The notes under the pieces were generated by a model. The model made no database searches and was not told the origin of the DNA. It was given only the letters and a program-made list of their open reading frames with translations. Source: Massalongia carnosa (Eukaryota). Taken from it: 64,000 nucleotides of DNA. Where the stretch lies: positions 992,001 to 1,056,000 of the forward strand of contig OZ287067.1 in NCBI GenBank assembly GCA_965645245.1, in the 5' to 3' direction. Shown piece after piece: positions 13,330-56,200 of this stretch (position 1 is the first letter of the stretch; every line of letters starts with the position of its first letter). Made by a program: the position numbers and the translations under genes.

Positions 13330-16300
13330 TTTCTTCAGATAAATTGTTTGTCGAAGAATTATGATTGATTTTTGAATGTTGACGTTCATCTCAATTCTCA
13401 AATAATGAGAAACTTTTTTCAAATTCGTCATGCGAAACCGAGACTTCAATTCGTGTTGCAATTGCTGCAATTTTGAAATATCTTTTTCGAAGATGAAAAG
13501 ATCGTCAACGTAAATCGCTATAAACATATTGTTCGAAACGAAAACTTCATGATTCGAATTTGTTCGTTTAAATTTCATTTTTTGCAGAAAATTCTGCAAG
13601 ATCTGATATCATACACGAAAAAATTGTTTCAGATCATATAAGTCTTTCGAAGTAAGCAGATCTTGTTCTTTTTTATTTCAAACAAGATGAATTGTATGAC
13701 GTATATAATTTCGTTCAAGAAGTCATATAGAAAAGCAGTCATCACGTTCATGTGATAAATGAATAATTTTCTTTTTACGTTAATTTTCATTAGCGTTTTG
13801 TAAAAAACTGATTTTATCATTGTAACAAAATGTCGAGATAATTCAGATCTTCTTTTTGTTTATAATCATGAATTATTCATTTTACTTTGTATTTCAGCAT
13901 TTTTTCATTTCTGTCTTTCTTTATTTTGAACATTCAGCGATCGATGATCATCTTTCGATCGAACGATGTTCTTTTTAATGTTCATGTTTCATTTTTCATT
14001 AAAAATTGATACTCGATTTTCATGATTTTTTTTCATTGTTCTTAGTGAGATGAGAACATTGTCTTCTTCAAAATCAGAAATTCATCGAGATTCTCGTTGT
14101 TCTCGTTTCTTGTCAGAATAATCAGCATTCGTATCATATGTACGTGAATTTTTGAAATCTGATCTGATTTAAATAAATTGATGCTGAATCGAATGTTCTT
14201 CAGCGTTCTTTGATTGAGAATTCTTATTCGTTCAAATTTTCGAAATTCGATGAATTGACGAAAAATGTTTTTCATTTCATCGAAGTCATTCTTCTTTTCA
14301 TTTTTCTCGATCTGATTTTTCTTCGAAGCATTTATTCTCATTTATTGAAACGTTATTCGTGATGTTGATGAAATCATTTCTGATTGAATTTTCGAATTTC
14401 TCGATATTTCAGAACTCGAAGTTATCGAAAATAAAGAAATTGAATGTTCGATTTCGTTTTTATCAACGAAGTCGTCTGAATCATCAAACAAATCGTCGTC
14501 GTTCTGCTTTCATGAAATGTCGACGAGATTTCAGACATTTTTGTCTTTGAAATCATATACATTGCCTTCATCGACAGTGATATCGCGACAAACATGAATC
14601 TTTTCGATAAAAGAATCGTAAATTCGAAATTGATTGTTTTCATCGTATTCGACAAATATTTTTTGTCAAAAACGATCATTCAGTTTCTTTCTTTTCTTCT
14701 TTGAAATGTGTATTCACGTTTTCGTCTCGATCGTTCTGATATGATCGAAAAAGAATTTCGCATCGTTCATGCGTTCATATGAAGTGATTTCGTCAATCTC
14801 GAGATTTCTATTCTTGATGTATTCGATCGTTTTCAGAATCTCTTTTCAAAATGATTTTGAAAATTTTTTAACTTTCATCATGAATCGAATGAGAATCATG
14901 AAAATATAATTTTGTTTTTCGATTTTTTCATTCTGTTCAGACACATTTGATGCTCGAATCTTTCATTGAATTCTTTTCTTTTTCAGGAATTTCTGAAAAT
15001 CGTCATTGATGTACTCTTCTTCTTCATCAATTCGAAGACTCTTCATTTTCTTTTTCGATTGATTTTTTATTCATGTTTTGAACTGCTTGAAACATTCAAA
15101 GATTTGATCTTTTGTTTTCATCAAATAAATTCAAATTATCTCGAAATAATCGTCTTTTATTGTAACATAAAAGCGTTCGTCAAATCTTGTCAGCGAGAAT
15201 GATTCTTTCAAATCGTTTTGCAGTAGATTCAAAAATTCTGTTGCTCGAATTCTTGAAGTGCGATTTATTATTCGTTGTTGTCTGCTCATCTTGCATGAGT
15301 CGCATATTTTTTTCGATATGAATTCTTCAATGATGACTTCTTTGATTAAATGATTTAATTTTAAAAATTTGAAATAATTGAAGTGATCAAGTCGTTCGTG
15401 TCATGTTTGAATAGAAATCTTTGTCGAATTTGTGATGACGAGGATTCGTGTCTTGATAAAGCTGATAATGATTGTTTGCAAAACATACTGATCGTTTATT
15501 GTTTTGATCAATTCAATCATTCTTTTTTTGTATATCAATTGAGCGAATTTATCATTCGTTTTTAAATACGTTGATATGTTCTTTTTTTCGAATTGTATTG
15601 TGCTGATGAAATTGAATTTTAAATCGAGAACGAAAAGAACGTTGATTAAAATGAGATTCGTTGCGCTTTCATTTTCATCGTTTATTGACAGAAACAGAAA
15701 ATCTCTTTCTTTCGTTGACAAAATCTCTTCGAAATCTGTTTTCATGTGATTGTGTTCGATTCGAAAAATTTTTTCTTGAAAAAGAATTTTATTGCAAACA
15801 ATGTGCGCGATGACATCGAAATCGATCAACAAATCGTGAGTGTTTTTGAAGTCTCGATACAGATTTGTGAAACAAATAAACGATGTTTTTTGAATCGTTG
15901 TTCGAAAACATTTCTTTATCGTACAGATTATTTGAAATTTTGAGATTTCATTATCTTTTTTGCTTTTACAAACGCGTTTCAAATGATCAATCTTATTACA
16001 CTTTCTGCATATAGCGTTGTTATGTCTGCATTTTTCGAAATGATTATAATCACAGCATTTGCATTTCTTATTTTCTTCGATGAGAGTTTTCTTTTTCTTT
16101 GTCTTCAGCATATTAATTACGACGACAGAATCTTGACGCATACGAGTCTTCTCGTTCCTCAGGTTTTTCAGTAGATCATTCAGTGTCGAAAATTTGTTTT
16201 CTCGTCGAGTCTGTTCATTCAAAATGATCAAATAAATGTTGAATGAACTGTCGAGTTCATTGAGAAGCTTGGGCATTACAATGTGTTCAACGATCAAAAT

Positions 16301-17295
16301 CATGTCGATGATTTCGAACTTGATGTTTCTGATTAAATTATCATACTTCTCGATGATCTTGCATTTTTCATAATTTATTTTCTTCAGTCGATTGAATGTG
16401 CTTTATTTCGCATTTCAATTTTTGAAGATGTATCGAATTTTTAAATGTTCTCAAAGATTCTTCGAATTTCAAATACTTTCATTGATTAAATCTTTCATCG
16501 ACAAGAATTCCTGTTGCACGTCATTCGTGCACATCTTGTTTATTTTATCAATTATTCTTTTTTGTTTTTTCGAGAACTTTAAACGTTCAAGATTTCTTTT
16601 GTCTCGTTTTTTTAACTGTTTCTCTGTTTTCTTCGAGAATGTCTCATCAATTTTCTGAAATGAAGAAGAAATTTCTCGAGACATTTTTCGAGCGTCGATC
16701 ACATAATTTCAAAGTTTCGTCTTCTGCAGAACGAAAGTCATGTCTCTGAATCATTTTTTATAATTTTCACTCCTCATCAGTTTGAAGAATGTGTATAAAC
16801 TCTTTTTCTTGATCATTTTTTATATTGAATTCACACAGAGAATTTTGATGATACATCGTGAAAATGTAAAAACAATGAAGAGTAGATGACGACGTTTTTT
16901 CGAGAATTGAAAAGGAGTATATATATTTAATATAGAATGAGATAGATAGAAGAGATGAAGATGAGTTTGACAATCAATGTGAAGACTTATTCAGACGCAG
17001 TAGAAGTAAGTCGAGCTCATAATCTAATAAAGGATAAATTCACGTGTAGATGTTATAGCATGATTGTCATTGAAGGTAATTATCTATGTGGGCTATTTGT
17101 CTGTTTTATATAGCAGTCACAAAGCAGTCACATCTAGGAGCCCGAACGGTCAGACCTTGTCCCCCCATATCTGCTTGTTTAGGCACCCTGACGGTCAGAC
17201 CTAGGCTCCCATATCTGCTTGTTCTGGCACTTTGCCAGGCACCCCCCGGGGCTCATGATGGATGCCTTTATTGATGATGGCCTCATCATCTGACA
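13330..17295 (-). mobile_element. Ty1/copia retrotransposon copy 1, RIP-degenerate, truncated within RT
   Basis: Minus-strand fragments: knuckle CRKCNKIDHLKRVC, protease LLIDFDVIAH (from DSGA), integrase, RT MNVMTAFL and AIYVDDL; order gag-PR-IN-RT; 5' LTR 17025-17295 next to a mutated GGTTATGAGCCC-type PBS. Confidence 0.9.
17025..17295 (-). repeat. 5' LTR of copia copy 1
   Basis: Homologous to 31588-31801, with an internal tandem duplication (ACGGTCAGACCT..CCCATATCTGCTTGTT). Confidence 0.85.
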
Positions 17296-17327
17296 TCGAG
17301 TGCCTTTTTCATGTCATTTTCTTCGAG

Positions 17328-19287: not shown

Positions 19288-19832
19288 TTAGAGAATTTTG
19301 AAATTTACAGCCTTCAGGCATTTGAGACAGACTCCACTGATTCTTGTAATGCTATTAGTCGTACTTTGCTGGAATTTTCTTTCGGAAACTGTAATGGCTC
19401 TTAAGCGTTTGTGCTCCGGTCTAATAAAACCGGAGCGAAGAGCGGATCCTTGCCCAATAGAAATCCTCATTTTATCCACCTTACTTAAAAGCTCACGAAC
19501 GCATAGAACATCGCCTTGTTGGCGATGTTCGATAGCGAGTCAATGAGACAACACCTGTCACCGAAGGAGATCAACACGTCAAAGAAATTTGGCAAGAGGG
19601 ACGATGGCAAGTTCCGACATAGATGCGGCAACATCTCATGTAATCATAAAGGCAGTTCTATCAAGGATTGGTACGGCGTCAATATCCGTCTCCTCCAGCT
19701 GACAAATCGTGGTGGGATTCCCATGTAATTGCCGTGGTAATTCGGTCAGAAGTTCGACCACGGAGTACGACCAAGAGAGCTCAGCCCCTGCTGTGCCAGA
19801 AGCTTCGCTCGTTACCTGAAGCATGGGCGCCC
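19288..19832 (-). pseudogene. Decayed ORF truncated by element C
   Basis: ORF pieces 19288-19479 and 19636-19824 share a frame, separated by stops; the frame runs up to the C LTR. Confidence 0.3.
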
Positions 19833-20862
19833 TGTAATACGGATGGCGCTAGAGGGATACGTGATCGCCTATGGCGGTTGCGGGATTAACTAGCGTGGAC
19901 CATGCCGTAGTACGAAGTCGCATAAGCCGTCGAGGCTGACACACTGCCATCTTGCCCCGAAACTTCGGAGTTATTGTTATCACGTTCTTGACTACTTACA
20001 GATCAAACACCTGTCGAGGCCGTGGTGGTAGATTGCCATGGAGTGTAAGGCGGACTCCTGTGGAGACGCCAAGGAACTCTATATGGGATCTACTGGCCTA
20101 CTCGGAGCTACTGGATCTCTTGATGGTTCAAGAGAGGTAGCAGGAGGCACGGCTCGCTGGACGCAGCTTGAGCTAGGCTCCCTGGTGTAAACTTCAGCTT
20201 CAACCTTTATTACTACGTTGGTAGTGATGTCGGCTGAATGAACCTACATGACCTCGTTGTCTAGACCTTGTGTTTAGAGGCAGGTCCGCAGTGTAGCGAG
20301 GTATTCAGTCGGAGGTAACCTTCCATCACTAGGTAGTGGTGACGGCGAAATGAAGCTACATAGCCTGAGGCATGTAGTGAGGGATCTAGCCGGGGGTAGA
20401 ATTGTTCTACCTTGCAAGGGAAGGTCTAGAAGGCTGCTCGAGGCTGACTAGATGATCCAGCGAACGCCGAGTTCGTGGATGGATCCTGAGGGATGGTTGG
20501 ATGTAATGCGATAAAGTCGGATGTGGATTGCAAGGCTGTAATGCTCGCAAGACTCCCAAGGCTTGCAAGGCTCCTAAGGTTCCAAGGCTCCCAAGGCTAT
20601 AGGCTTGGGGTGAGTAGGATAAATATCAGAACGAATCTTGTAGTATTCGTTAGCAATTAGTCTTTATTCTATGAACAACCTACGTTTGGGTCTCGGACGA
20701 GATCTCTTGGTCTAAGCACTTCCACATCCATTAGTTCTTTGGATCACGTATACTCTCGGAGACTAGCACGTAGTAGCTATCTTCCTCCTCTCACGCTGAG
20801 CATTTCCCCTTTCGAGATCAGTGTTGCTCGTGATAAGCTTACTGGTCTCGTAGCCCATTACA
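19833..20862 (+). repeat. 5' LTR of C
   Basis: TGTAAT...ATTACA; internal CAAGGCT tandem motifs. Confidence 0.97.
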
Positions 20863-20952: not shown

Positions 20953-22104
20953 ATGTCTTCAAGCTCTCGCCCTCGCAGGAATGTCCGGCAAGGTCCAACA
21001 AGATCTCCCCAGGCAGAAGATACTTCAAGGCCTTCGGAAGAGACACCGGCACCAAGTACTGAGGAAGCTACGGGCCCTGCCAAATACACCGAGGAAGATC
21101 TGCAGAGAATCACAAAGCTCTGCATGGAGTCGTTCCTCCAGGCACAAGGCAGTCGACATGAAGGCCCCCGAGAAGGTCAGTTGAAAGCTCGGTTCCCGGA
21201 TCTCTACTATGGGAAGTCCCATATGGAGTGTTACCATTTCTGCCAACAATGCGAAGACCACTTTGACACCGCCGGCGCCACTGGGTCTAACCGTACACCC
21301 TTTGCCGCATCTTTCCTTCGTGGCCGGATCAGCTTTCGTTGGCACCAGCACAAACGTCGAAGCCAAGGCGAAGAGGTAGGACCTTTGTCTTGGATCGAGT
21401 TCAAGGCTTTCCTTCGGAAGAATCTTGGAGACTCTAGGGCTTTTGTGGACGCAACCTGGAGTAGGATCAAGCGGGACTCCCAGTACCAACAAGAAGAAGT
21501 TCAGGATTGGGCTTCTCACCTGGAACATTTGCAATCGATACTCCTGGAGTTTGATGCTGAGGGAGCTCCAGAGGAGTCGGACCTTATTCGGTACTTTCGT
21601 GAAGGCCTCAAGCCTTCGATAAAGGCCCAGATGGAACAACGAGGAAGGGAACTAGACAGTTGGGAGGAGCTGGTCGAAAAAGCGATCGATGCTGAGGCAA
21701 AAGCTAGCCTGCAGCCGCAATCGATCCTTCGTGAGATGGATCAGCGTTGTCCACATGGAAACCGGCTCGCTCATGCCACTGTGGCCAAACCCCAGACCTC
21801 TACTCGAGACCCTCGAGACGAGCCTAGCGAAAAGCCCAAAACGTCGGGTCCGAAGCAACCAAACTCCTCGCGCCCAGAGAACAGCGAGATTGCCGACAAG
21901 AAAGCTCGGAGAGAAAAGAAAAGGCAGCGACGTCTTGATCAAGCTCGAGATCGGAAAGGCTCGGAGTCGACTCCGGCCACCGGTGCCAACACTTCCAATG
22001 GCACCAGCAGGGACGTGTCCCAAATCACCTGCTTCAACTGCAACAAGAAGGGACACTACGCAAGCACTTGTCGCGAGTCCAAGAAGGACGCTTCAAAAAA
22101 CTAG
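20953..22104 (+). CDS. gag: Gag of C
   Basis: Retrotransposon gag core, zinc knuckle CFNCNKKGHYASTC; ends A AAA AAC TAG. Confidence 0.95.
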   Translation: MSSSSRPRRNVRQGPTRSPQAEDTSRPSEETPAPSTEEATGPAKYTEEDLQRITKLCMESFLQAQGSRHEGPREGQLKARFPDLYYGKSHMECYHFCQQCEDHFDTAGATGSNRTPFAASFLRGRISFRWHQHKRRSQGEEVGPLSWIEFKAFLRKNLGDSRAFVDATWSRIKRDSQYQQEEVQDWASHLEHLQSILLEFDAEGAPEESDLIRYFREGLKPSIKAQMEQRGRELDSWEELVEKAIDAEAKASLQPQSILREMDQRCPHGNRLAHATVAKPQTSTRDPRDEPSEKPKTSGPKQPNSSRPENSEIADKKARREKKRQRRLDQARDRKGSESTPATGANTSNGTSRDVSQITCFNCNKKGHYASTCRESKKDASKN

Positions 22105-25100
22105 TATCGGTCTTGGCAACCTCCGCGCCTTTGACTGAAACTAGTAAGGAGGCTAATCTTGAGCGGGTTCCTTGTATTCGATATCCGGTCCGTTTGAGGA
22201 AGGATCAAGACGAGGTAGAAGCTTTGATAGATTCCGGCAGCGAGGTCAATGCAATGCACCCCGCTTATGCCGCGAAACTAGGGCTTCGTGTTAGGGAAAC
22301 AGATGTTGGGGCGCAGAAGATTGATGGATCTCACCTGGATACCTTCGGTATGGTTATCGCAGGGTTCTCGGTCGAGGATAAGCTAGGGAAGGTTCGATTC
22401 TTCCAGGAAACCTTCTTGTTGGCTAATATTAGCCTGGAGGTGGTCCTGGGAATGCCTTTTCTTACACTCAGCAGTGTGGATATACGGTTTCTAGAGCGAG
22501 AGCTTGCCTGGAGAACTTACACAGCTGCCGAGGCTTTACCAACAACCAGACGTGTGGAGATCATCGATAAGGAAGAGTTCGCGGAGACGGTCCTTGGAGG
22601 AGACGATGAGGCATATGTGGTGCATGTAATGGCCGTAAGCAAGCCATCGTCCATGCCGATCCACGCCTCTCGCCAGGCCCAAGTAGCCTCGCTAGTGAGC
22701 GAGGAGGCCAATATCCCCGTTGAATATTCCGACTTCTCTGACGTTTTCTCCCCTGACTCTGCAGCGGAACTACCGGAGCACACCGGCTTTAACGACCATC
22801 CTATCGATCTAGTAGATGGTAAGCAGCCACCTTATGGCCCAATCTACAGCCTAGGTCCTATGGAACTAGAGACACTGAAAACCTATATTGAAACCAACCT
22901 AGCCAGCGGTTTTATTAGGCCTTCTCAATCTCCGGCTGGTGCTCCTATACTGTTCATCCGCAAAAAGGACGGTAGTCTCCGCCTGTGTGTGGATTATCGA
23001 GGACTCAATACCCTGACAATCAAGAATCGGTACCCGTTGCCCTTGATTGGAGAGTCGCTTGATCGACTAGGCCGTGCCAAGCGATTTACGCAGCTAGATC
23101 TCACGAACGCGTATCATCGGATGCGAATTCGAGAGGGTGATGAATGGAAGACAGCCTTTAGGACTCGATATGGTCACTTCGAGTATCAGGTTATGCCCTT
23201 CGGCCTTTCCAATGCCCCAGCTAGTTTCCAGGGCTATATCAACAAAATTCTAGCAGAGAAACTCGACGTCTTTGTCATCGTATACTTAGATGACATCCTG
23301 ATCTATACCGAGGACGTAGGTCAAGGCCATGTTGAGGCTGTTAAGTGGGTCTTGGAGAATCTCCGAAAAAACGGACTCTTTGCCAATCTAAAGAAGTGCC
23401 GTTTTCATCAAGATGAGGTTCGCTTCCTAGGCTACGTTGTCTCTGGCCAAGGAATTCGTATGGAAGAGGAAAGGATTGAAGCTGTCACGAACTGGCCAGA
23501 ACCCAAGTCAGTACGAGACGTCCAGGTGTTTATGGGATTCGCCAAATTCTACCGGCGGTTCATCCGGGGGTTCAGCAAGATTGCTGCTCCACTCACCTCA
23601 ATGCTTAAAACGAACTTGGTCGCCAACACTGGGCCATCCCCAAAGGCGAGGCGCGGAGCGGAAGAATCTTGTTTTCTAACTCCTGCCGCTGAGTTAGCCT
23701 TTGCCCAATTAAAGCAGGCGTTCACTGAAGCACCGATCCTCCGACATTTTGACCCTGAGCGCCACATCCGACTTGAGACGGACGCCTCGGGTTACGCCAT
23801 AGGTGGCGTTCGCGTTCTTAGCCAGCTGGATATCGAAACCGGCCAATGGCACCCAGTAGCGTATTTTTCTCGGAAAATGATTCCTGCGGAAACTCGTTAC
23901 GAAACTCACGATGGAGAACTACTAGCCATCGTTGAAGCCTTTAAGAATTGGAGGCATTATCTCGAAGGTTGTAAGCATGAAGTCCTCGTGCTTACAGACC
24001 ACAACAACCTGCGGCGATTTATGGATACGAAGAGTTTAAGCCCCCGCCAGGTTCGCTGGGCGCAAGAACTCTCTCGTTAGAATTTCCGCATCGATTATCG
24101 TCAAGGCAAGGCTAATGGAGCTGCCGATGCTTTATCTCGCTATCCTCAGAGGAGCCAAGGCGAAGAGGAAGTGCTTCGAGCTGAGAATACTCGAATCCTT
24201 CACCGACTGCAGTCCTCGCTGACCAGCGCCAGCATCTCTGGTATCACTAGTACTCAGCATCTCACCCCTCCACACCACATCATTATCTGTGGAACGCACG
24301 TCTTCCCTCAACTACGTCAGTTTTGGGATACGCTCCGCCAAGACTTGACCTCTGAAGGTCCTTACAAAGTCAGCATTGGTGGCATGAGGTTGAGGTTGCA
24401 GGAGTTGCAGGAGGAAGATACCCAAGCTCAGATGATCAGAGCAGAGAAGCTTGGAAAAGATGGCTGGGAAGACGCCGATGAGATTTTGCACTATCAAAGC
24501 CTGCCTTATGTCCCTGAGATCCTCAGAACTGAGCTAATCAGTAGGCATCATGATGATCCATTAGCAGGACACTTCGGCATCGAAAAGACGCGAGAACTCA
24601 TTGCGAGAAAGTACTTCTGGGAGACTCTCCGTCGCGATGTTGAGAGCTATGTCAAGGGTTGCGACGTCTGCTTATCTTCTAAAGCGGTCAGACACAAGCC
24701 TTACGGAGACCTACAGTCACTGCCAGTGCCAACTCATCGCTGGAAAGACTTGTCTATGGATTTCGTGACGGGGTTGCCTGAATCTGCGGATTGGAAGCGC
24801 GACAGTTACGATTCGATCCTGGTTATCGTCGACCGGCTTACGAAGATGGTGCACTATGAGCCAGTGCTAACAACGATCACTGCGCCATTGCTAGCAGAGG
24901 TAATCATAGACGTGGTAGTTCGTCACCACGGCTTGCCCGACTCTATCGTCAGCGACCGCGGCTCAGTTTTCACTTCTAAGTTCTGGTCTTCCTTGTGCTA
25001 CTTTTTAGGCATCAAGCGACGCCTCTCTACTGCGTTCCATCCACAGACCGATGGGCAGACCGAACGTCAGAACAGCACCATGGAAGCCTATCTTAGGGCG

Positions 25101-25961
25101 TTCGTCAACTACGAACAAGACGACTGGGCGCGCCTGCTTCCGATGGCTGAGTTCGCGTACAACAATGCGAAAAACGCGAGTACTGGGCATACGCCGTTCG
25201 AGCTCAACTGTGGCTACCACCCCCGTGTCTCATATGAGGAAGACATCGACCCCCGTTCCAGGTCCAAGTCAGCAAATGAACTAGCTGCAGAACTAAAGGA
25301 CTTGATGGCTATCTGTAAGGAAAACCTTCAGCACGCACAAGAATGGCAGACAAAGGCCCACAACAAAGGAACCAAGCCACGGAGCTATGCACCTGGCGAT
25401 AAAGTTTGGTTGAACAGCAAATATATTAAGACCAAACGCAATCGCAAGCTAGAGGCTAAGTTCTTTGGGCCATTCCGTGTCTTGCAACCAGTGGGCAAGC
25501 AAGCCTACAAGCTGGAGCTTCCAAAGCGGTGGCGCATCCATGATGTCTTTCATGTATCACTGCTGGAGCAGGACACCACAAGGAAGGGGCGGGTGGACGA
25601 GAAGATCGCGGAACAGCTGGAATTCGAAGCTGGTAACGATGAGGAGTACGAGGTTGAAGGCATTTTGGATAGCGCGGTCTACGCCAAGGAGTCAGAAGCT
25701 GGCCACCTACCAGGCCTCTACTATCTGGTCTCCTGGAAGGGCTATCCAGAGGATGAAAGTACGTGGGAACCGGCGGCAGCGATCAAACACCTACGGAAGA
25801 TCGTCAAAGCCTACCATGAGGGTAACCCCACCAAGCCGACAGCAACCTCTCCTCCTATTGACACCGCACCGCCAATGGCTAAGCCAGCCGTTAAGCCTCA
25901 AGGCAAGAGGAAACGCGGCCGAACAGCTACCAGTACTCGGAGCAAGAAGGCGAAGAAGTAG
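22095..25961 (+). pseudogene. pol: Pol of C, interrupted by TAG at 24078-24080
   Basis: LIDSGSEVN, YLDD, TDASG, integrase, chromodomain; the frame continues after the stop (ELSR*NFRIDYRQG, where Y or F is expected). Confidence 0.92.
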
Positions 25962-26003
25962 AAGCCTCGGGGTTTCTCTCCTGCCACATGCTATGGAATC
26001 CAG

Positions 26004-26243
26004 GATCGGTTTTCCCTTCGTTTTCCCGTTATCTTATCAGGGTTTAAGGGTTTTTCATCGATCTTGAGAAGTCGGTTTTCCCTACGTTCTCCCATTGTCT
26101 TATCAGGGTTTTAGGGTTTTTCATCGATTTCGATAAAGTCGGTTTTCCTCCTCAGTTCCCACTGGGTTAGGAGGTTTTTCATTGACTTCGGAGGCCGGTT
26201 TTCCTCCTTGCTATCATACAAGGAAGGAGGTTTTTCACCGCCT
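26004..26243 (+). other. Four tandem ENE-like (U-rich internal loop) RNA elements in the 3' UTR of C
   Basis: Units 26004-26063, 26069-26130, 26136-26188 and 26192-26243 each read lower stem-TTTT-upper stem...upper stem'-TTTTT-CA-lower stem', with covarying upper stems. Confidence 0.85.
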
Positions 26244-26328
26244 GCCATACACATCATACCACCCACCTAACGTGTCGTTACTATCTACTACACGCTCGGC
26301 GGAGCTCGCGTCCTAGAGGGGAGGCAAT

Positions 26329-27358
26329 TGTAATACGGATGGCGCTAGAGGGATACGTGATCGCCTATGGCGGTTGCGGGATTAACTAGCGTGGACCATG
26401 CCGTAGTACGAAGTCGCATAAGCCGTCGAGGCTGACACACTGCCATCTTGCCCCGAAACTTCGGAGTTATTGTTATCACGTTCTTGACTACTTACAGATC
26501 AAACACCTGTCGAGGCCGTGGTGGTAGATTGCCATGGAGTGTAAGGCGGACTCCTGTGGAGACGCCAAGGAACTCTATATGGGATCTACTGGCCTACTCG
26601 GAGCTACTGGATCTCTTGATGGTTCAAGAGAGGTAGCAGGAGGCACGGCTCGCTGGACGCAGCTTGAGCTAGGCTCCCTGGTGTAAACTTCAGCTTCAAC
26701 CTTTATTACTACGTTGGTAGTGATGTCGGCTGAATGAACCTACATGACCTCGTTGTCTAGACCTTGTGTTTAGAGGCAGGTCCGCAGTGTAGCGAGGTAT
26801 TCAGTCGGAGGTAACCTTCCATCACTAGGTAGTGGTGACGGCGAAATGAAGCTACATAGCCTGAGGCATGTAGTGAGGGATCTAGCCGGGGGTAGAATTG
26901 TTCTACCTTGCAAGGGAAGGTCTAGAAGGCTGCTCGAGGCTGACTAGATGATCCAGCGAACGCCGAGTTCGTGGATGGATCCTGAGGGATGGTTGGATGT
27001 AATGCGATAAAGTCGGATGTGGATTGCAAGGCTGTAATGCTCGCAAGACTCCCAAGGCTTGCAAGGCTCCTAAGGTTCCAAGGCTCCCAAGGCTATAGGC
27101 TTGGGGTGAGTAGGATAAATATCAGAACGAATCTTGTAGTATTCGTTAGCAATTAGTCTTTATTCTATGAACAACCTACGTTTGGGTCTCGGACGAGATC
27201 TCTTGGTCTAAGCACTTCCACATCCATTAGTTCTTTGGATCACGTATACTCTCGGAGACTAGCACGTAGTAGCTATCTTCCTCCTCTCACGCTGAGCATT
27301 TCCCCTTTCGAGATCAGTGTCGCTCGTGATAAGCTTACTGGTCTCGTAGCCCATTACA
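26329..27358 (+). repeat. 3' LTR of C
   Basis: Direct repeat of 19833-20862. Confidence 0.97.
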
Positions 27359-30300
27359 AATTCAGATCTTTCTTTTGTTTATAATCATGAATTACTCATC
27401 TTGCTTTGTATTTCAGCACTTTTTAATTTCTGTCTTTCTTTATTTTGAACATTCAGCGATCGATGATCATCTTTCGATCGAACGATGCTCTTTTTAATGT
27501 TCATGTTTCATTTTTCATTAAAAATTGATACTCGATCTTCATGATCTTTTTTTATTGTTCTCAATGAGATGAGAACATTGTCTTCTTCAGAATCAGAGAT
27601 TCATCGAGATTCTCGTTGTTCTCGTTTCTTGTCAGAATAATCAACACTCGTATCATATGTACGTGAATTTTTGAAATCTGATCTGATTTAAATAAATTGA
27701 TGCTGAATCGAATGTTCTTCAACGTTCTTTGACTGAGAATTCTTATTCGTTCAGATTTTCGAGACTCGATAAGCTGACGAGAAATGTTCTTCACTTCATC
27801 GAAGTCATTCTTCTTTTCATTCTTCTCAATTTGATTTCTTTTCGAAGCATTTACTCTCATTGATTGAAGCGTTATTCGTGATGCTGATGAGATCATTTCT
27901 GATTGAACTTTCGAATTTCTCGATATTTCAGAGCTCGAAGTTATCGAAAATAAAGAAATTGAATGTTCGATTTCGTTTTTATCAACGAAGTCGTCTGAAT
28001 CATCAAACAAATCATCGTCGTTCTGCTTTCATGAAATGTCGACGAGATTTCAGACATTTTTGTTTTTGAGATCATATACATTGTCTTCATCGACAGTGAT
28101 ATCGCGACAAACATGAATCTTTTCGATAAAAGAATCGTAGATTCGAAATTGATTGTTTTCATCGTACTCGACAAATATTTTCTGTCAAAAACGATCATTC
28201 AGCTTCTTTTTTTTCTTCTTTGAGATGTGTATTCACGTTCTCGTTTCGATCGTTCTCATATGATCGAGAAAAAATTTCGCATCGTTCATGCGTTCATATA
28301 AAGTGATCTCGTCAATCTCGAGATTTTTATTCTTGATGTATTCGATCGTTTTCAGAATTTCTTTTCAAAGTGACTTTGAAAGTTTTTTAACTTTTATCAT
28401 GAATCGAATGAAAATCATGAAAATATAATTTTGTTTTTCGATCTTTTCATTCTGTTCAGACACATTTGATGCTCGAGTCTTTCATTGAATTTCTTTTTTC
28501 TTCAGAAATTTCTGAAAATCGTCATTGATGTACTTCTCTTCTTCATCAGCTCGAAGACTCTTCATTTTCTTTCTCGATTGATTTTTTATTCATGTTTTGA
28601 ACTGCTTGAAACATTCAAAAATTTGATCTTTTGTTTTCATCAAATAAATTCAAATTATCTCGAAATAATCGTCTATTATTGTAACATAAAAGCGTTCGTC
28701 AAATCTTGTCAGCGAGAATGATCTTCTCAAATCGCTATGCAGTAAATTCAGAAATCCTGTTGCTCGAATTCTTGAAATGCGATTTATTTTTCGTTGTTGT
28801 CTGTTCATCATGCATGAATCGCATACTTCTTTCGATATGAATTCTTCAATGATGATTTCTTTGATTAAATGATTTAATTTTAGAAGATTGAGATAACTGA
28901 AATGATCATGTCGTTCGTGTCATGTTTGGATAGAGACTTTTGTCGAATTTGTGATGACGAGAACTCGTGTCTCGATAAAGCTGATAATGATTGTCTGCAA
29001 AACATATTGATCGTTTATTGTTTTGATCAGTTCAATCATTCTTTCTTTATAAATCAATTGAGCGAGCTTGTCATTCGCTTTCAAATACGTTGATATGTTC
29101 TTCTTGTCGAATTGAATTGTGCTGATCAGATTGAATTTTAAATCGAAAATCAAAAGAACGTTGATCAAAATGAGATTCGTTACACTTTCATTTTCATTGT
29201 CGAGTGATACGAGCAGAGAATCTTTTTTTTCTGTTGATAACATCTTTTCGAAGCCTGTTTTCAAGCGATTGTTTTCATTTCGAAAAGTTTCTTCTTGAAA
29301 AAGGTCATTGTTGCATATAATGTGCGCGATGACATCGAAATCGATCAACAGATCGTGAGCATTCTTGAAATCTCGATACAGATTTGTCATACAAATAAGC
29401 GATGTCTTCTGAATTTTTTTCTTGAAGCATTTTCTTATTGTACAAACTATTTGAGATTTTGAGATTTCATTATCTTTTTTGCTTTCACAAACGCGTTTCA
29501 GATGATCAATCTTATTACACTTTTTACATGTAGCGTTGCTATGCCTGCATTTTTCGAAATGATTATAATCACAGCATTTACATTTGTTCTTATTCTCTTC
29601 GATGAGATTCTTCTTTTTCTTTGTTTTCAGCATGTTAGCTACGACGACAGGATTCTGACGCATACGAGTCTTTTCGTTCTTCAGGTTTTTTAATAAGTCG
29701 TTCAACGTCGAAAATTTGTTTTCTCGTCGAGCTTGTTCGTTCAGAATGATCAAATAAATGTTGAATGAACTGTCGAGTTCATTGAGAAGTTTGAGCACTA
29801 CAATGTGCTCAACGATCAAAATCATGTCGATGATTTCGAACTTGATGTTTCTGATTAGATTATCATACTTCTCGATGATCTTGCATTTTTCATAATTTAT
29901 TTTTTTCATTCGATTAAATGTGCTTCATTTCGCACTTCAATTTCTGAAAATGTATCGAATTTTCAGATGTTCTCAAAGATTCTTCGAGTCTCAAATGTTT
30001 TCATTGATTAAATCTCTCATCGACAAGAATTCCTGTTGCACGTCATTCGTGCACATTTTGTTTATTTTATCAATTACTCTTTTTTGTTTTTTCGAGAACT
30101 TTAGACGTTCAAGATTTCGTTTGTTTCGTTTTTTTAACTGTTTCTCTGTTTTCTTCGAGAATGTCTCATCAGCTTTTTGAAATGAAGAAAAAATTTCTCG
30201 AGACATTTTTCGAGCATCAGTCACGTAGTTTCAAAGTTTCGTCTTCTGCAGAGCGAAGATCATGTCTCTGAATCATTTCTTATAGTTTTCACTCCTCATT

Positions 30301-31801
30301 AGCTTTGAGAATGTGTATAAATTCTCTTCTCTGATCATGATGCCTTCGAGGTCGTTGAAGAGGAATGTAATGGGCTACGAGACCAGTAAGCTAATCACGA
30401 GCGACACTGATCTCGAAAGGGGAAATGCTCAGCGTGAGAGGTGGAAGATAGCTTCTACGTGCTGGTCTCCGAGAGTATACGTGATCCAAAGAACTAATGG
30501 ATGTGAAAGTGCTTAGACCAAGAGATCTCGTCCGAGACCCAAACGTAGGTTGTTCATAGAATAAAGACTAATTGCTAACGAATACTACAGGATTCGTTCT
30601 GGTATTTATCCTACTCACCCCAAGCCTATAGCCTTGGGAGCCTTGGAACCTTAGGAGCCTTGCAACCCACATCTGACCTTATCGCCTTACATCTAACCAT
30701 CCCTCAGGATCCATCTACGAACTCGGCGTTCGCTGGATCATCTAGTCAGCCTCGAGCAGCCTTCTAGACCTTCCCTTGCAAGGTAGAACACTTCTACCTC
30801 CGGCTAGATCTCTCGCCACATTGCTAGCCCGCCTCTAAACAGAAAGTCTAGACGCCGAGGCTACGTAGCTTCATTTCGCCGTCACCACTACCAACGTAGC
30901 GGTGGAAGGTTACCTCCGACTGAATCTCTGTCTACACTGCGGACCTGCCTCTAGACACAAGGTCTAGACCACAAGGTCATGTAGGTTCACTCAGTCGACA
31001 TCACTACCAACGTAGCAATAAAGGTGGAAGCTGAAGTTTACACCGGGGAGGCCGAGCTCAAGCTGCGTCCAGCTAGCCGTGCCTCCTGCTACAACTCTTG
31101 ATCCATCAAGAGATCGTGTAGCTCCGAGTAGGCCAGTAGATTCCATATAGAGTTCACGGCTAGTCTCCACAGGAGTTCGCCTTACACTCCATGGCAATCT
31201 ACCACCGCGGCCTCGACAGGTGTTTGATCTGTAAGCAGTCTAGAACGTAGTAACAACTAATCCGAAGTTGTGTGGCAAGGTGGCGTTGTGGCAAGATAGC
31301 GATGTGTCAAGGTGGCGATGTGGCAACCTCGACGGCTATGCTACTTCGTACTACGGCTTGGCTCATGCTAGTTAATCCCGCAACCGCCCTAGGCGATCAC
31401 GTATCCCTCTAGCGCCATCCGTATTACAAGGAAAGAGTTCTTTCGTTGAACGAAGCTTTGAAATAAATGAGAAGTATATGTATATATAATATAGGATGGA
31501 GTAGATGAGAGAGATGAAGGTGAGTTTGTTTGACAATCAATGTGGGGGCTTAATCAGACGTAGTAGAAGTAAGCCGGGCTCATAACCTAATAAATGATAA
31601 ATTCACGTGTAGGTGTTATAGCATGATTGTCATTGAAGGTGATTATCTATGTGGGCTATTTGTCTGCTTATATAGCAGTCACAAAACAGTTACACCTAGG
31701 AGCCTAAACAGTCATACTGTAGGCCTTCCATATCTGCCTATTAGACACCTCCCGAGACTCATGATGGATGCCTATATTGATGATGGCCTCATCATCTGAC
31801 A
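27359..31801 (-). mobile_element. Ty1/copia copy 2, RIP-degenerate, 3' part lost at element C
   Basis: Colinear with copy 1 from 13840 onward; PBS GGTTATGAGCCCGG (minus, 31574-31587); 5' LTR 31588-31801. Confidence 0.9.
30366..31428 (-). repeat. Solo LTR of a C-family variant, inserted in copia copy 2
   Basis: Diverged reverse complement of the C LTR with 5-bp TSD AGGAA (30361-30365, 31429-31433). Confidence 0.93.
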
Positions 31802-32154
31802 TTATAAACGAGGCTTGTCGAATTATCGTGTTCGTAGGCGTCGAGATTAGTACTAATTGCGATATATCGATGAATATTGATCTCTATCTTTGATCATCTT
31901 TAGATAACAATTATTCAGAACTTTCGATCTGAGACTGATCTTCACAAGACGAATCGAGATCTTTTCGAGAGAAAAGTGCTCGATGACGAAGAAAGAAGGA
32001 AAGAATTGTATAAATGCTTGATCGAAATAAGAAACAAAGCGATATTCGAAGACCTGATTCAGACGAATACGCATCGATTTTTTCAAATTCTTCAAAGATT
32101 CGAAAAGCTTCAAAGATGCTATACTCAGAATCTGAATGAACTGAAGACAAGAAC
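31802..32154 (+). pseudogene. Sirtuin (Hst3/Hst4-like) gene, 5' part, RIP-degenerate
   Basis: RIIVFVGVEISTNCDIS (from GAGIS..GIP), intron, NFRSETDL (from DFRS..GL), THRFFQIL..KLQRCYTQNLNELK (from YTQNIDGLE). Confidence 0.85.
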
Positions 32155-38346: not shown

Positions 38347-39056
38347 ATAAGATGGCATCGCAGGAGCTCTGCCTTGAAGGGGGAGCTACTGTCATGAAAT
38401 GCCTCCGACCTCACCACGTGCCTCTATCACGTGCCTTGATCTGATGACTACTCACGGACGTCGTGCCATGCCTTCGGGACCCTCATATCATTCTTCGAAT
38501 TCGCCGATTACTGATCATTAATCAGCCTCGCATTGATGATTTATTCCCGTCTTTCGACTATTATCATGTCTAATAGCTTCGCATTGATGTTTGACATCTC
38601 CCGTCTCCTCGCTGACCCCATCGTGCTTATTGCCGCTATAATGCCCCTCATTCATCATCGCACTGACTAGACATCATTCGCCGCCACCCTAGAAAGATGA
38701 ATATGGGAGGACAAAGATATAAGAAAGAAGCCGAATCATGGAAGTTCTGATTCTTTGTCGAACGTCTTGAATAGCCAACCTAGCCTAGCCTAGATTCATA
38801 GCTATAGACTCAATCAATAAGCTTGACCATCAACCCACCTTGCCTTTGCCCTTGCCCTCGACCTGATTTCGTGACAGTCTATGTAGCTGTTGCTGGGCAA
38901 TAGCAAGGCAGTCACTGGGGGAAAGCAGTGTAGGGGGGTTGATCAAGTAGATTGATCAGTGGCCTTCGAAAGAGGTGGGCGATAGGTCCTTTATCCTATA
39001 GTCCCACCTCGATCAGGCCACGTCTATCATACTAGTTACTACTACATGATTGACTC

Positions 39057-41439
39057 TGTAGAGGGGTGGAGTGGAACTCCACCGGGTCGGTGGCAAGTGA
39101 GGTGATGAGTCAGGTGATTGGTCATGTGGTCGGGTGCTGGCGTCTTGGCGTTCCGGTTATATGAGTCTTTTTCTCAAACTTTCCTTCTCATCTTTCGGGA
39201 TATCCATCTTCGGATCATACTGCTATCAACACATACAGCTATCATAGACACTTTCATTCATACAGCTAGTCGGCCATTGATGGGCATGACGATTAATTCA
39301 TCGATGCAGTGAGGCTCTGTTGATTCGGTCATTTGTTTGTTTGTTTCATCCTTCTATCGTTCGCCACCACCCAGTTTATCCCTTCACATTTGGCGACCAC
39401 GGTGCGATCGGAAGTAGTAGGACCTGAGCAAGAACATTTGAACATCATTAACCTCTTAAGCACGAGCACGAGGCTAGAAATTGAGCACTGAACACGAGGC
39501 ACGAGACACGAGACACGAGCACGAGCACTGAGACTGCGACCGAGACCGAGTACGCGACAGTGTATAAAATTGAGCACTGGGCCGAGCACACGATGGCCCC
39601 AATTTATCTTTCCCTTTTAATCACCGCGACCACCACCACCACCACCATTCTATCACCGACGACCTGCCAACCAGATGTACATTCCTGGGACTGGCTTATC
39701 CTCATCCTTGCTGCACTGACGGCCGTCACCTCGTGCATCACCTTCTGCTGCTGGGCAAGTGCGGCTGCGACCGCGAACAGGGCAGCAACGTCATCATCCG
39801 ACTCGTGTGCCTTAGTGGCACCTATCATATCTGTTGCGAACATGGAGGAATGGTTGAACAACTGCCAAGCAGCGTCCATGACACCACCCACCACTAGTCC
39901 GCCGCCGACCGAGCCTGTGACCGAGCCACATGACACCGTGTCAATCACCGAGTCTTCTGCGTCTGAGCTGGAAAGGCCAAAAATGGCATATTCGTATTCA
40001 GACTCTGATTTAGGTGCTGCACTAGCGCGGGCCGAAGAGGACCGGATGACCGACATCAACCCTGACGTCTGTGAGACTTCTGGTGCTCAGCCTATTGATT
40101 CACCTGTCACCGTTCCAGCCACCAATTCTGCCATGCCTGCACCGATCATCATGCCTGATTCATCATCTTCTGATCAATCAGCTTCGTCTTCGCCCGCTGT
40201 CGACACCGTAATATTCTCGCTGATGCTTGATTATCTTCTAATCAAGGCCATGGCGCTAGTTACTCCGATAAGCCGAATGACGGAGATGTCGGTCATTGAA
40301 GCCCTGATGCATTTAGACCCGCTCTTGGCAAAATTTATGCTAGAAACGGACGAGGGAGCAAAGATTTTGCTAGAACTTAAGAATCAGGTGCTTCAACGTC
40401 GCATGCAGACCGATCGTGACAAGGCTCATGATACACGTGGTTCAGCTAGCCCATCTCCTCCACCCCGCTCTGAAGCCTCTGTTTCAGCCAACCGTGTGAC
40501 CCATTCACCAAGCGGACGACTAGCAAGCAGAGCACCACCGAGCAAGACTTCCGGGCCCACGCCCCCTCTTCGTCGGACAGCTGCTCCGCTCCCATCGGGG
40601 CCATGGCAGTCGGAACGCGCCAGGCAGGCAAGAGTGGACCGTCGGCAACAGCAACAGCAGAGATCATGGCCGGAACAAAGTAGCTCCACTCCATTTAACA
40701 GGCCCGGCCTGTTAAATCAGCAGTCAACAACATCTCCGACCCCGATACCTCAACGCAGCGTATTCGGACCTTTGCTTATGGGCCCTGACCAACCGCGACA
40801 GACGGGTGCGTACGTACCACCTCACCTACGAGCTAACTACAAGCAGTCAGAGCAGGACTGCTCGGCCAATCAGAAGAGGTTTGTACGATATGTTTCAACT
40901 CCTGAGGGCTGGAAACAAATTGCTAGTGTCATGAATAACGTTAGCAAATTGACAGGTGTTGAGGTCAATCATGCTTGGGGATTCGACACAGCGGTCATGA
41001 GCTAGAACAGACAAGAACGTCTAATGGACTAGCTGAAAGGAGAAATGCGGGGGAGCGAAGTCTAGACTCGGTGTCATGGGACGACACCTATGTCAACCGG
41101 GGACCTATGTAGAGGGGTGGAGTGGAACTCCACCGGGTCGGTGGCAAGTGAGGTGATGAGTCAGGTGATTGGTCATGTGGTCGGGTGCTGGCGTCTTGGC
41201 GTTCCGGTTATATGAGTCTTTTTCTCAAACTTTCCTTCTCATCTTTCGGGATATCCATCTTCGGATCATACTGCTATCAACACATACAGCTATCATAGAC
41301 ACTTTCATTCATACAGCTAGTCGGCCATTGATGGGCATGACGATTAATTCATCGATGCAGTGAGGCTCTGTTGATTCGGTCATTTGTTTGTTTGTTTCAT
41401 CCTTCTATCGTTCGCCACCACCCAGTTTATCCCTTCACA
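39057..41439 (+). mobile_element. Non-autonomous LTR element G (2383 bp) with a single non-gag/pol ORF
   Basis: 332-bp LTRs 39057-39388 and 41108-41439, identical by eye, TG...CA; 4-bp TSD ACTC; PBS-like TGGCGACCACGG at 39391. Confidence 0.93.
39593..41005 (+). CDS. 470-aa hypothetical protein: N-terminal hydrophobic/TM segments, S/P/T-rich linkers, helical core, YVPPHLR motif
   Basis: Uninterrupted, intron-less ORF filling most of G's interior; WLILILAALTAVTSCITFCCW hydrophobic helix; no RT, IN or zinc-knuckle motifs. Confidence 0.75.
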   Translation: MAPIYLSLLITATTTTTTILSPTTCQPDVHSWDWLILILAALTAVTSCITFCCWASAAATANRAATSSSDSCALVAPIISVANMEEWLNNCQAASMTPPTTSPPPTEPVTEPHDTVSITESSASELERPKMAYSYSDSDLGAALARAEEDRMTDINPDVCETSGAQPIDSPVTVPATNSAMPAPIIMPDSSSSDQSASSSPAVDTVIFSLMLDYLLIKAMALVTPISRMTEMSVIEALMHLDPLLAKFMLETDEGAKILLELKNQVLQRRMQTDRDKAHDTRGSASPSPPPRSEASVSANRVTHSPSGRLASRAPPSKTSGPTPPLRRTAAPLPSGPWQSERARQARVDRRQQQQQRSWPEQSSSTPFNRPGLLNQQSTTSPTPIPQRSVFGPLLMGPDQPRQTGAYVPPHLRANYKQSEQDCSANQKRFVRYVSTPEGWKQIASVMNNVSKLTGVEVNHAWGFDTAVMS

Positions 41440-53205: not shown

Positions 53206-56200
53206 ATGGAAGAATACGCGAACGAAGAGGAAGCCTCTGACGGTGAAGTCTACAGGAAGATACGCAACTGTCAGTCCCAAAAGCAGTCCAGTTTGGAAAT
53301 GCGATGGTGGACTCTTCTCTCTCCACATAGGGCCAGGAATTTAAAACAACTACTTCGGCACAGGGAATTCACCCTTGCCTTTGATGCTTTCTTGGAGATA
53401 TCTGCGCTCTTAACAGGGATGAGACTTAGTACCCTACATAAGATATTCGCGATTAGATGCGATGAGGTAAATGTTTCGTCGTCGATCGTATGAATGCGCT
53501 CATCGATTGCTAGGAAATCATACATTACCTTCAATACATCAAGCAATTCTGATCTGACCTGCTTCAGCAAGACAAGATCGCGATGATCAAGATAGATCAA
53601 GTCATCGTGGAAGCGTTACAGTTCATCGCGTCATGACAATCAACACTAGATGCTCAAAATCTACGTGATAAAATGCTGAGCGAGGAAATCTTTGACAATT
53701 TTAGTCAACATGAACGCGAGGGAATCTGGATTAGGCTACAGTTCTTTAAAGGTCTGATTCCTTCTCTGTTCGAGTTCTTTGAGAACGCTAAATGCCTTGA
53801 GGCATGAGTCGACTGTGTAAAATGACTGATATGCCTAGGTCCTCGGGAAACGCTGTCCACGGCAATGAAGAAGATCTATACTGATATAAATCAGAGCGTA
53901 GACTCGACTCTGATGCAGGAAAATGAGACAACGTTCGAGTCTATGTCAGCAAACTTCACTCGTCGAATTGATCTAGAATATCGACAACTACACGCCTTTG
54001 CTATGCGTTATCACTGCGAAATTCTCAGAAAGCCTAGCGGGAAGGATCTTTTGACAAAGTCAAGGGTCAGGTTAAACACAATGAGGTTGCGTCAGATGAC
54101 TGATCTTGTCAATCATTTGAGATTCGAGTCGTTCGAGATCATCGTCTTAACGCAGTTTTCAAAGTCAACAGATCCAATGATAGTAAGAGAAAATGAAAAG
54201 CCTGCGATAGTCACGAATGATTCAGGGAAGATTAGAAAGGACAGATGTGAAATGCCACATACTCAAAATTACGAAGAGGATCGCAAATTTCTATTCATCA
54301 CACATTTACATGACGATAGAGATGAACAATTCGAGGAAATCACGTTCTACTTCAGGCTAAGATTCACGTACTTGAAGTTTTATGAGATGTCGAACGGCTT
54401 CAATTCACAACAGAATCTCACTACAGCGACAGGAGAATTATTATCCTCAGCTTTTCGTCTGACTCGATCGACTTATTCGCCAAGAGAAGATCAGGCACGA
54501 GAGGCTGAGCATATGAAGGTGGACGGGGAATCAACAGAAGACACAGTGATGCAGGATGGAGAGGGAGAAGGAGAGGAAGAGGAACAAAGACCTCCATTCC
54601 AAGCAGAAGGTACTTTTGCACAAGAACCAACGATGCAGCGACAAAAGCTCTTGTCTGAAGCAAGCGTGCTTGGAAAAAAGGAGTATGAGCAAGAGCAATA
54701 TCGGCAGAAGCTTGTGGAGGACGCAAATGCTCTCGTGGAAGAGGATCAAAGACTGGAACAAAAACGACAAAAGCTCTTGTCCGACGCAAGCACACTTGAA
54801 AAACAGGAGCAAGAGCAAGAACTTCATCGGCAGCAACTCGTATGGGATGCAGGTACAATCAGAGAACAAGAGCAGGAGCAAGGGCAGCGACGACAAAAGC
54901 TCTTGTCTCATACAAACATACTTGAAAAGCAAGGACAAGAACAAGAGCAGTACCTGCAGAAGCTTTTAAGAGATACAAGCGCGTTCGGAGAACAGGATCA
55001 GGAAAAGGAACAACAACGTCAAAAACTCTTGTCCGATGTAAGCACGCTTGAAAAGGAAGAGCAAGAGCAAGAGCAATACCAGCAGAGGCTTATAAGGGAC
55101 GCAATCGCACTCAAAGAACAAGAGCAAGAACAAGAGCGACGAAGACAAAAGCTCATCTCAGACGAAAGCGCGCTAAAAGAAGGCGAGCAAGAGCAAGAAC
55201 AAATGTATCAAAAGCTTACGAGGGACGCCAGTGCCCTTAGAGAGCAAGAGCAAAAGCGAGAGAAACAACGTCAAACTCTTGCGAGAGAAGAAAAAGAGCT
55301 ATTGAATCGAAAACAAAGGCAGAAGGAACAACGAGAAACACTCGCAGCGGACGCAAGCAAGCTAGTTTTACAAGAGAAAAAGCAGGAGGAACGAAGAAAC
55401 ATTCTCGCAGCCGTCGCGGATGAGCTCGTGAATCAAGAGCAAAGGCAAAAAGAACAGCGACAAAAGCTTGCGGAGTACGCAAGTCATCTTGAGAAACAAG
55501 AACTGAGGCAAAAAGAACAACGAAAAAAGCTTACGACAGACACTAGCGAGCTGCACAAACAAGAGAAACGCCTTAAGAAGTTAAAGAAGGATAAATTGAA
55601 GCAGAAACGAGAGCAAAAGAGCGTGAAGTCAAAGATATTGAGGAGTAAGCCGAATGAGTCAGGAACAATTCAGGAGCGAGACGAGCGAGACGTGATGAAG
55701 CTACAAAGACAAGGTCAAGAAGAACTGACAGATCTTAAACTGCCATCTTCCTTAAAGCTCGAGTATGAAGGAATAGATGTCGATCGAAGTGTACCTGAAG
55801 TACGAGCGCAGAACTATTCAATGGATGCAGTCCAGAAAAGTGATACTAAAGTGAGTGTTTCAGCACTCAAAGGTAAAAACAGTCCGGCACAAGAGCACGA
55901 ATCACAACGAGATAGAGCACAAGTGAAGGGCCAAAAGGAGAGGCTAATCGAGGAAGCCCATGAGCCTGAGGCTCAAGAGAGGGGCCAAAAGCATGAAGTG
56001 CAAGAGCGGAGGCATGAGCATCAAACGCAAGAGAACGAGCAAGAAGATAGAGCCCACGAGGATGAAGCATGTGAGGATGCAGCACATAATGATAAGGTCC
56101 AACGCGGTAGGCAAGCGGACGAAGCCCAAGAGGTTATGCAGGAGGATAAGGCACATGGGAAAGGGCAAGATGGTGGTGCGCAAGAGGATAAAGTACGAGA

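Follow-up and report, generated by a model that had tools for sequence, protein, structure and literature searches.

A tandem array of four hairpins in the 3' UTR of a Ty3/gypsy retrotransposon of Massalongia carnosa is probably a set of four single-domain, PAN-type ENEs that, by analogy with ENEs of established function, would clamp the poly(A) tail and slow deadenylation. The DNA analysed, referred to below as the window, is a 64,000-nt stretch (assembly GCA_965645245.1, contig OZ287067.1, positions 992,001 to 1,056,000 of the forward strand), and all coordinates given without a locus name refer to it. The array lies on the + strand between the pol stop and the PPT (48 nt 3' of the one and 71 nt 5' of the other), just where a sequence-only reading of this DNA had placed it. 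That reading also took the units for ENEs, and in this respect it is supported: the ENE-like design, the sense 3' UTR position and the stabilising role agree with the anatomy of the units, with two sister families and with the literature on the Arabidopsis element Evade; its label of double ENE (dENE) is not. ENEs in fungal LTR elements are already established, and they are readily found in relatives of this element. The unusual part is the presence of four units in tandem; our literature search found no tandem ENE arrays in fungal elements and no mention of arrays of four in the reviews consulted, a statement on which the supplementary ENE lists of a 2016 survey (referred to below) may bear.

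The host element

The element that carries the array (element C) is a 7.5-kb Ty3/gypsy chromovirus in which LTRs, gag, the PR-RT-RH-IN order, the chromodomain and the PPT are all present. Its type and its neighbours point to a fungal host.

19833-20862, + strand: 5' LTR, 1030 bp, TG...CA, one mismatch relative to the 3' LTR
20953-22104, + strand: gag ORF, 383 aa, with a weak Retrotrans_gag match and a zinc knuckle
22068-25961, + strand: pol, encoding protease, RT, RNase H, integrase, SH3 and chromodomain; final stop at 25959-25961
26315-26324, + strand: PPT, 4 nt 5' of the 3' LTR
26329-27358, + strand: 3' LTR, carrying the inferred poly(A) site
27114-27121, + strand: TATA-like 8-mer at LTR position 786

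The pol frame of the window copy is broken by one in-frame stop (24078-24080). Neither AATAAA nor ATTAAA occurs in the LTR; should the TATA-like 8-mer act as promoter, both R and the poly(A) site would lie downstream of it, ~0.9-1.1 kb past the array. The window copy has no target-site duplication (the flanking 5-mers at 19828-19832 and 27359-27363 differ) yet its LTRs are nearly identical, unlike the situation in nine other young copies, and it may have arisen by recombination or lost one flank. The 64-kb window contains no tRNA genes.

Searching the genome (52 Mb in 25 contigs) yields 40 matches to the 3' end of element C, and the array is present in all of the best 30 of these 40, the window copy included (one array is shortened in unit 4). 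Nine of the 12 youngest other copies have two LTRs with 0-1 mismatches between them and a matching 5-bp target duplication, and six of the 12 have an intact pol frame. Near-identical LTRs, target duplications and intact pol in young copies show that family C has spread very recently. Pattern counts in the same genome (99 matches against 11 for the control) do not constitute independent evidence for the motif, since 97 of the 99 are family-C copies; a looser pattern adds ten further places, none of which passes the motif descriptor described below. Some copies are irregular in structure. One of them (L301; G000 C3:186122-189417) is interrupted by ~2.7 kb of foreign DNA and has, after the break, only three units, with units 1 and 2 fused as a hybrid. 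In two others (L289 and L292, on G000 C12 and C22) the 3' LTR runs straight into the element's own leader, that is, they are head-to-tail copies near contig ends.

Anatomy and folding of the four units

26004-26063, + strand: unit 1, with a 6-bp lower stem, U4, a 5-bp stem and U5-CA
within 26004-26063, + strand: inner loop of unit 1, CG-U4 / U3, closed by three C-G pairs
26069-26130, + strand: unit 2, a tandem duplicate of unit 1 (88%), with inner loop CG-UUCU / U3
26136-26188, + strand: unit 3, with a 7-bp lower stem, U4, a 6-bp stem and U5-CA; inner loop only U2/U2
26192-26243, + strand: unit 4, with a lower stem containing a 1-nt bulge, U4, a 7-bp stem and U5-CA

Read 5' to 3', each unit consists of lower stem, U4, C-rich upper stem, an apical part, G-rich upper stem, U5, CA and the other half of the lower stem, so that an asymmetric U-rich internal loop separates two stems in all four. 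The upper stem starts with two C-G pairs in every unit; a G-C pair is found within the first two pairs of the lower stem in three of the four, while unit 3 begins G-U, G-U, C-G. Thus G-C pairs, the A-minor receptors of a single-domain ENE, flank the U loop. The stem sequences quoted in the sequence-only reading are right for all units. So is the nested inner U loop that it described in units 1 and 2, except that the inner loop of unit 2 has U3, not U4, on its 3' side, because the fourth T belongs to the stem. Its statement that structure rather than sequence is conserved has to be given up: the units are tandem duplicates, and sequence is therefore kept as well as structure (pairwise identity of 69-88%, or 12-31% divergence, and 21 of 66 columns invariant across the four).

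Folded singly, as had been suggested, every unit gives the expected hairpin, with z scores from -2.4 to -3.8 and 0-7 of 200 shuffles as good; unit 4 is the most stable. The four hairpins also form when the 271-nt region is folded as a whole (z -3.4, 0/200 shuffles as good). In seven longer folding contexts the stems of units 1 and 2 retain mean pair probabilities of 0.97-0.98 and 0.89-0.99, respectively, throughout. Unit 4 keeps at least 0.87 in six of the seven, and unit 3 at least 0.5 in six of the seven, being lost when pairing to coding sequence 300 nt upstream is allowed. The sense strand folds better than the antisense strand in all four units, which is due to G-U pairs. In ViennaRNA predictions the A of CA is paired to the leading U of U4 (p ~0.9 in units 1, 2 and 4), so that the free loop may be U3/U5-C.

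The motif descriptor is post hoc, having been composed once the motif was known. With that proviso, it matches the UTR four times, with a maximum of two matches in any of 2000 dinucleotide shuffles, and matches the whole window, both strands, eight times, four of these being the array. An Rfam scan of 25000-27500 yielded no family match, its single hit, to the L20 leader, being at chance level (E 3.3). A bacterial terminator or promoter was also considered and rejected, a search for such sites having predicted none.

Which kind of ENE?

A single-domain ENE is described as a stem-loop whose U-rich internal loop, lying beside G-C pairs, captures the poly(A) tail in U-A-U and A-minor triples and needs no protein to block deadenylation (PMC7583470); for the ENE of KSHV PAN RNA with oligo(A), five U-A-U and three A-minor triples are reported (PMC7583470). 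The C units share with the PAN ENE the succession of stem, U-rich internal loop and stem, with G-C pairs beside the loop. They differ in having U4/U5 tracts, which would accommodate at most four triples, in occurring four in tandem, and in being part of a coding retroelement RNA at ~1 kb from its inferred tail. In addition, pairing is kept through sequence change between units and between families, as is characteristic of a single-domain ENE. The array belongs to the class of plant and fungal transposon ENEs of Tycowski, Shu and Steitz (2016), whose ~200 predicted ENEs are described as occurring mostly in plants and fungi and as strongly tied to LTR retrotransposons (PMC12501189). A functional precedent is the ENE of Evade (Copia93), which is reported to lie in the spacer between ORF and 3' LTR, to form a triplex with A20, and to raise RNA stability, copy number and transposition (PMC12501189). 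The family-C array likewise lies between ORF and 3' LTR, but Evade is a plant Ty1 element with four U tracts in one fold-back (a double loop), whereas in the fungal Ty3 element C eight main U tracts are distributed over four separate hairpins.

Units 1 and 2 had been read as double ENEs, a class in which, as published, a PAN-like domain stands above a lower one that has a 3-4-nt bulge and an interrupted stem (PMC7583470), and which also has an adenosine triad and a 3'-end pocket motif (PMC13541005). Like double ENEs of the TWIFB1 type, units 1 and 2 have two U-rich loops on one hairpin, but the order is reversed: the PAN-like domain is basal, with a 2-nt bulge (CA) and an unbroken stem of 6-7 bp, which does not fit a dENE lower domain, and the upper loop, which has extra bases on its 5' side and sits on U-A or A-U pairs, is not PAN-like. 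This inner loop is broken by a C in unit 2, reduced to U2/U2 in unit 3 and absent in unit 4. A second covariance model, built from eight fungal-type dENEs (see below), picks up the units of family E at E 0.006-0.02 and has no match to any C unit or to family D. The dENE label must accordingly be dropped for units 1 and 2, whose inner U loop may at most be a minor or atypical second site. A blunt triplex of the MALAT1 type was considered separately: MALAT1 and MEN-beta likewise have a U-rich internal loop, but they need a genomic A-rich tract, which is not present downstream here (the longest A run in 26244-27358 is 3), and that assignment was rejected.

Sister families and other Ty3 elements of the genome

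The closest families to C, designated D and E, are 65-68% identical to it over the C-terminal part of integrase, and the three form one integrase clade (support 100/99). Both have hairpins of C-like design, made of other stem sequences, between stop and PPT.

L047 / L049:5284-5466: family E, two units, between stop and PPT
L031:5574-5632: family D, one unit, between stop and PPT

These units are nearly invariant across 14-15 copies (part is missing in one D copy). Those of family E look like the lower domain of a double ENE on its own. Eight units from four families were compared in a table anchored on the U tracts, because the MAFFT alignment mis-registers the lower stems of D and E. The first three upper-stem and first two lower-stem pairs are kept in 8/8, and G-C pairs are flipped to C-G between families. 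In a separate pair count on the alignment itself 75.9% of cells are paired, against 61.5% in shuffles, and two-sided change is seen at 8 of 11 pairs, figures that are inflated by taking the reference structure from unit 1 and by the relatedness of the rows; the shuffle count is not a probability. A covariance model made from the four C units alone is too narrow for the sister families: family E is reached only at E 0.29, family D is missed altogether, and unit 4 itself is absent from its match list, probably because of a 1-base overlap with unit 3.

For more distantly related Ty3 families of this genome 43 stretches (31-47% identical) were examined, none of which has a descriptor match between stop and PPT, so that not every family requires the element; one of the 43 (L234) has a weak model match with short U tracts. 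The sequence-only reading saw no such units in families A and B, and none is there: only ~30 nt separate stop and PPT, without a match. A third element in the window (39054-41404), a 2.4-kb stretch with direct repeats and one 481-aa ORF that has no Pfam match, is likewise free of descriptor and model matches.

More distant relatives

Closer integrase relatives number 120 (59-88% identical) and were compared at the protein level; the UTR comparison covers a more distant set, made up of 79 metagenome loci (40-50% identical) and 11 stray contigs in prokaryote bins. In this set antisense matches outnumber sense matches for both the strict descriptor (7 to 3) and the relaxed one (15 to 10), which means that descriptors alone are noisy and that several of the distant examples rest on inspection and position. 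Weak matches of the four-unit model cluster on the sense strand within 300 nt past the stop (5/16, where 3% is expected). Inspection brings to light textbook-like double ENEs, most of them at the pol stop or just past it, in the Ty3 elements listed here, together with one in a Ty1/copia-like element and a tandem pair of different units.

L093:2315-2376: candidate double ENE, Ty3 3' UTR, overlapping the stop codon
L094:3459-3519: candidate double ENE, Ty3 3' UTR
L097:1961-2016: candidate double ENE, Ty3 3' UTR
L098:3421-3481: candidate double ENE, Ty3 3' UTR
L104:3437-3502: candidate double ENE, Ty3 3' UTR
L119:1439-1500: candidate double ENE, Ty3 3' UTR
L303:3478-3532: candidate double ENE, Ty3 3' UTR
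L307:3404-3458: candidate double ENE, Ty3 3' UTR
L161:4024-4098, - strand: candidate double ENE, Ty1/copia-like 3' UTR, 138 nt past the stop and ~50 nt before the PPT
L095:3448-3579: tandem pair of differing ENE-like units, one C-type and one E-type, directly at the stop

Single ENE-like hairpins are seen in L112 and L304, and L096 and L105 also have ENE-like hairpins (that of L105 is cut by the contig end). The Ty1/copia-like element of L161 is nested in opposite orientation to the Ty3 match; the element in L095 is decayed and matches C best, followed by E and D. Outside its training set the dENE model matches L094, L096, L105, L095, L304 and both family E units. As judged from these sequences, the ENE class appears to be common in such fungal-type LTR elements, and tandem pairs appear to occur elsewhere; the four units of family C are the most in any one array among the elements examined. 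Viral contigs contain no protein relative, and none of their 18 pattern matches passes the descriptor.

Two further features of the distant set can be recorded here. Eukaryote-type Ty3 integrase sequences in prokaryote genome bins (L302-L312, two of them in a 6.6-Mb "chromosome" record) are probably contaminating contigs. The spacers between pol stop and PPT are 1.2-1.8 kb long in L093, L104, L303, L307, L096 and L105, and four of the six contain an antisense ORF of 150-380 codons.

Variation among family-C copies

In the site and codon comparisons that follow, codons and sites of sub-threshold coverage were dropped and indels are uncounted. Among 19 TC-type copies, the pol changes that are shared are mostly synonymous (99 synonymous, 42 nonsynonymous) when set against private changes (78 and 118; p 5e-8), and shared changes in these copies therefore record active lineages. 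Shared variants occupy 3 of 240 array sites, in comparison with 41 of 466 fourfold sites (p 2e-5), 5 of 76 fourfold sites in the nearby 600 nt (p 0.02) and 5 of 114 sites elsewhere in the UTR (p 0.12, not significant), all of these being counts of linked, and hence not independent, sites. Within the array unpaired positions (0/72) vary no more than stems and U tracts (3/168), so that the constraint is not structure-specific. For the 13 youngest copies the array does not differ from nearby fourfold sites (p 1.0), local fourfold diversity being low.

The sequence-only reading called the units covarying and proposed a test across C copies. The term holds between units and between families, but among family-C copies only two two-sided changes were found, both in one copy of 29. 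A second group of copies instead has common pair-breaking changes in units 1-3: two shared breaks in the lower stem of unit 1 (11/29 copies), three in unit 2 (6-10 copies each, one of them in the U5 tract, 10/29) and one in the upper stem of unit 3 (9 copies); unit 4 has no break common to more than three copies. All 15 copies of the break-sharing group are found no more than 116 kb from a contig end, as against 5 of 18 others, most of them are truncated, and their shared pol changes (11 synonymous, 22 nonsynonymous) are like private ones (p 0.54). The group thus looks dead, which fits multiplication of dead copies near chromosome ends. Alternatively, units 1-3 may be dispensable in an active lineage, the breaks preceding inactivation; the tree of 18 copies is unrooted and sets no order between AA and TC types. 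(L292, a near-duplicate of L289, was left out of the AA codon test.)

A proposed mechanism and its rivals

Polyadenylated in the 3' LTR ~1 kb downstream, the RNA would fold its tail back to the array and thread it through a U-rich loop, forming up to 3-4 U-A-U triples and making A-minor contacts with the neighbouring G-C pairs. The clamp would hide the tail end from deadenylases, so that the protected, unspliced genomic RNA could persist long enough for translation, packaging and copying. More tentatively, four units might provide avidity or redundancy, acting as several short clamps or offering a new clamp to a shortening tail. Multiple copies of the PAN ENE are reported to be needed for an effect on reporter nuclear retention (PMC4246217), a hint that ENE number may matter here too. 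If the proposal is correct, a mechanism demonstrated in vivo for one plant element would extend to a fungal Ty3 retrotransposon. The genome would then also offer a compact natural test set, with three sister families bearing one, two or four clamps side by side and with decayed copies whose clamps are broken; such a set could show whether RNA lifetime scales with the number of ENEs, whether a tail can be clamped at a distance of 1 kb, and whether an ENE placed at the stop codon protects against nonsense-mediated decay (NMD). The 240-nt four-clamp cassette might also serve as an RNA stabiliser for fungal expression.

Placement near the stop codon suggests an extended, though unlikely, version of the poly(A) clamp, in which an ENE at the stop codon folds the tail back and so both blocks deadenylation and makes a 3' UTR of 1-3 kb look short to NMD; the four-unit array would then be a high-avidity form and the families with one, two and four units a dose series. 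It draws support from the model-match enrichment after the stop mentioned above, from the suppression of NMD by artificial tail fold-back reported in engineered RNAs (PMC2689704), and from the position of the first U tract less than 70 nt from the stop in ten elements (C, E, L093, L095, L097, L098, L104, L119, L303 and L304), a set found in part by reading just after the stop; in four of the ten more than 1.2 kb lies between that tract and the PPT. Counting against it, the units of L112, D, L096 and L105 are farther from the stop, and the long spacers may have been inserted later and bring poly(A) sites of their own. The same placement, with an array that starts 48 nt past the stop in element C and a 3' UTR of more than 1 kb, could be explained by recruitment of a U- or pyrimidine-binding protein to the loops as an NMD shield that involves no triplex, and the Rous sarcoma virus stability element is reported to counter NMD in just this way, through PTBP1 (PMC5031192). 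This we consider very unlikely, in view of the short facing U tracts, the asymmetric loop and the G-C flanks kept in 8/8 units, features required for a triplex but not for a protein that binds single strands, and also in view of the hairpins of L096 and L105, at ~1.26 kb from the stop.

It can also be asked whether all four units work. One functional ENE with passengers, the extra units being neutral duplications that are invariant through a recent sweep, would be compatible with the one or two units of the sister families, with shared breaks that fall in units 1-3 of older copies and largely spare unit 4, with the three-unit copy on contig C3 and its unit 1/2 hybrid, and with low fourfold diversity near the array in young copies. 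Against this, all four units, although 12-31% diverged, retain the two U tracts, the CA and both stems, and the upper stem has undergone two-sided changes; neutral duplicates of that age should have lost pairing, and we rate this explanation as somewhat harder to credit than the protein shield. Repeated retroelement hairpins at such positions can recruit export factors or Gag (CTE- and DR-type), and the array could on that account be an export, packaging or dimerisation signal. The site between last ORF and PPT and the tandem repetition are the same, and constraint on loop sequence (no shared variants at 72 unpaired positions) is what protein recognition predicts. But the apical loops vary from unit to unit and show no self-complementarity on inspection, the part common to the families is the U-tract loop and not a purine-rich one, and Rfam, apart from the chance-level hit already mentioned, recognises no family; of all the alternatives this appears the least probable.

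Other features of the window

The window contains two features unrelated to the array. AT-rich copies of another repeat, 91-94% alike, occupy 13840-17296 and 27359-31802, the second abutting the 3' LTR of element C; the pair looks to have been mutated by a repeat-targeting process. At 54639-55268, four to five 126-nt tandem repeats lie within an 893-aa ORF that starts with DUF3723.
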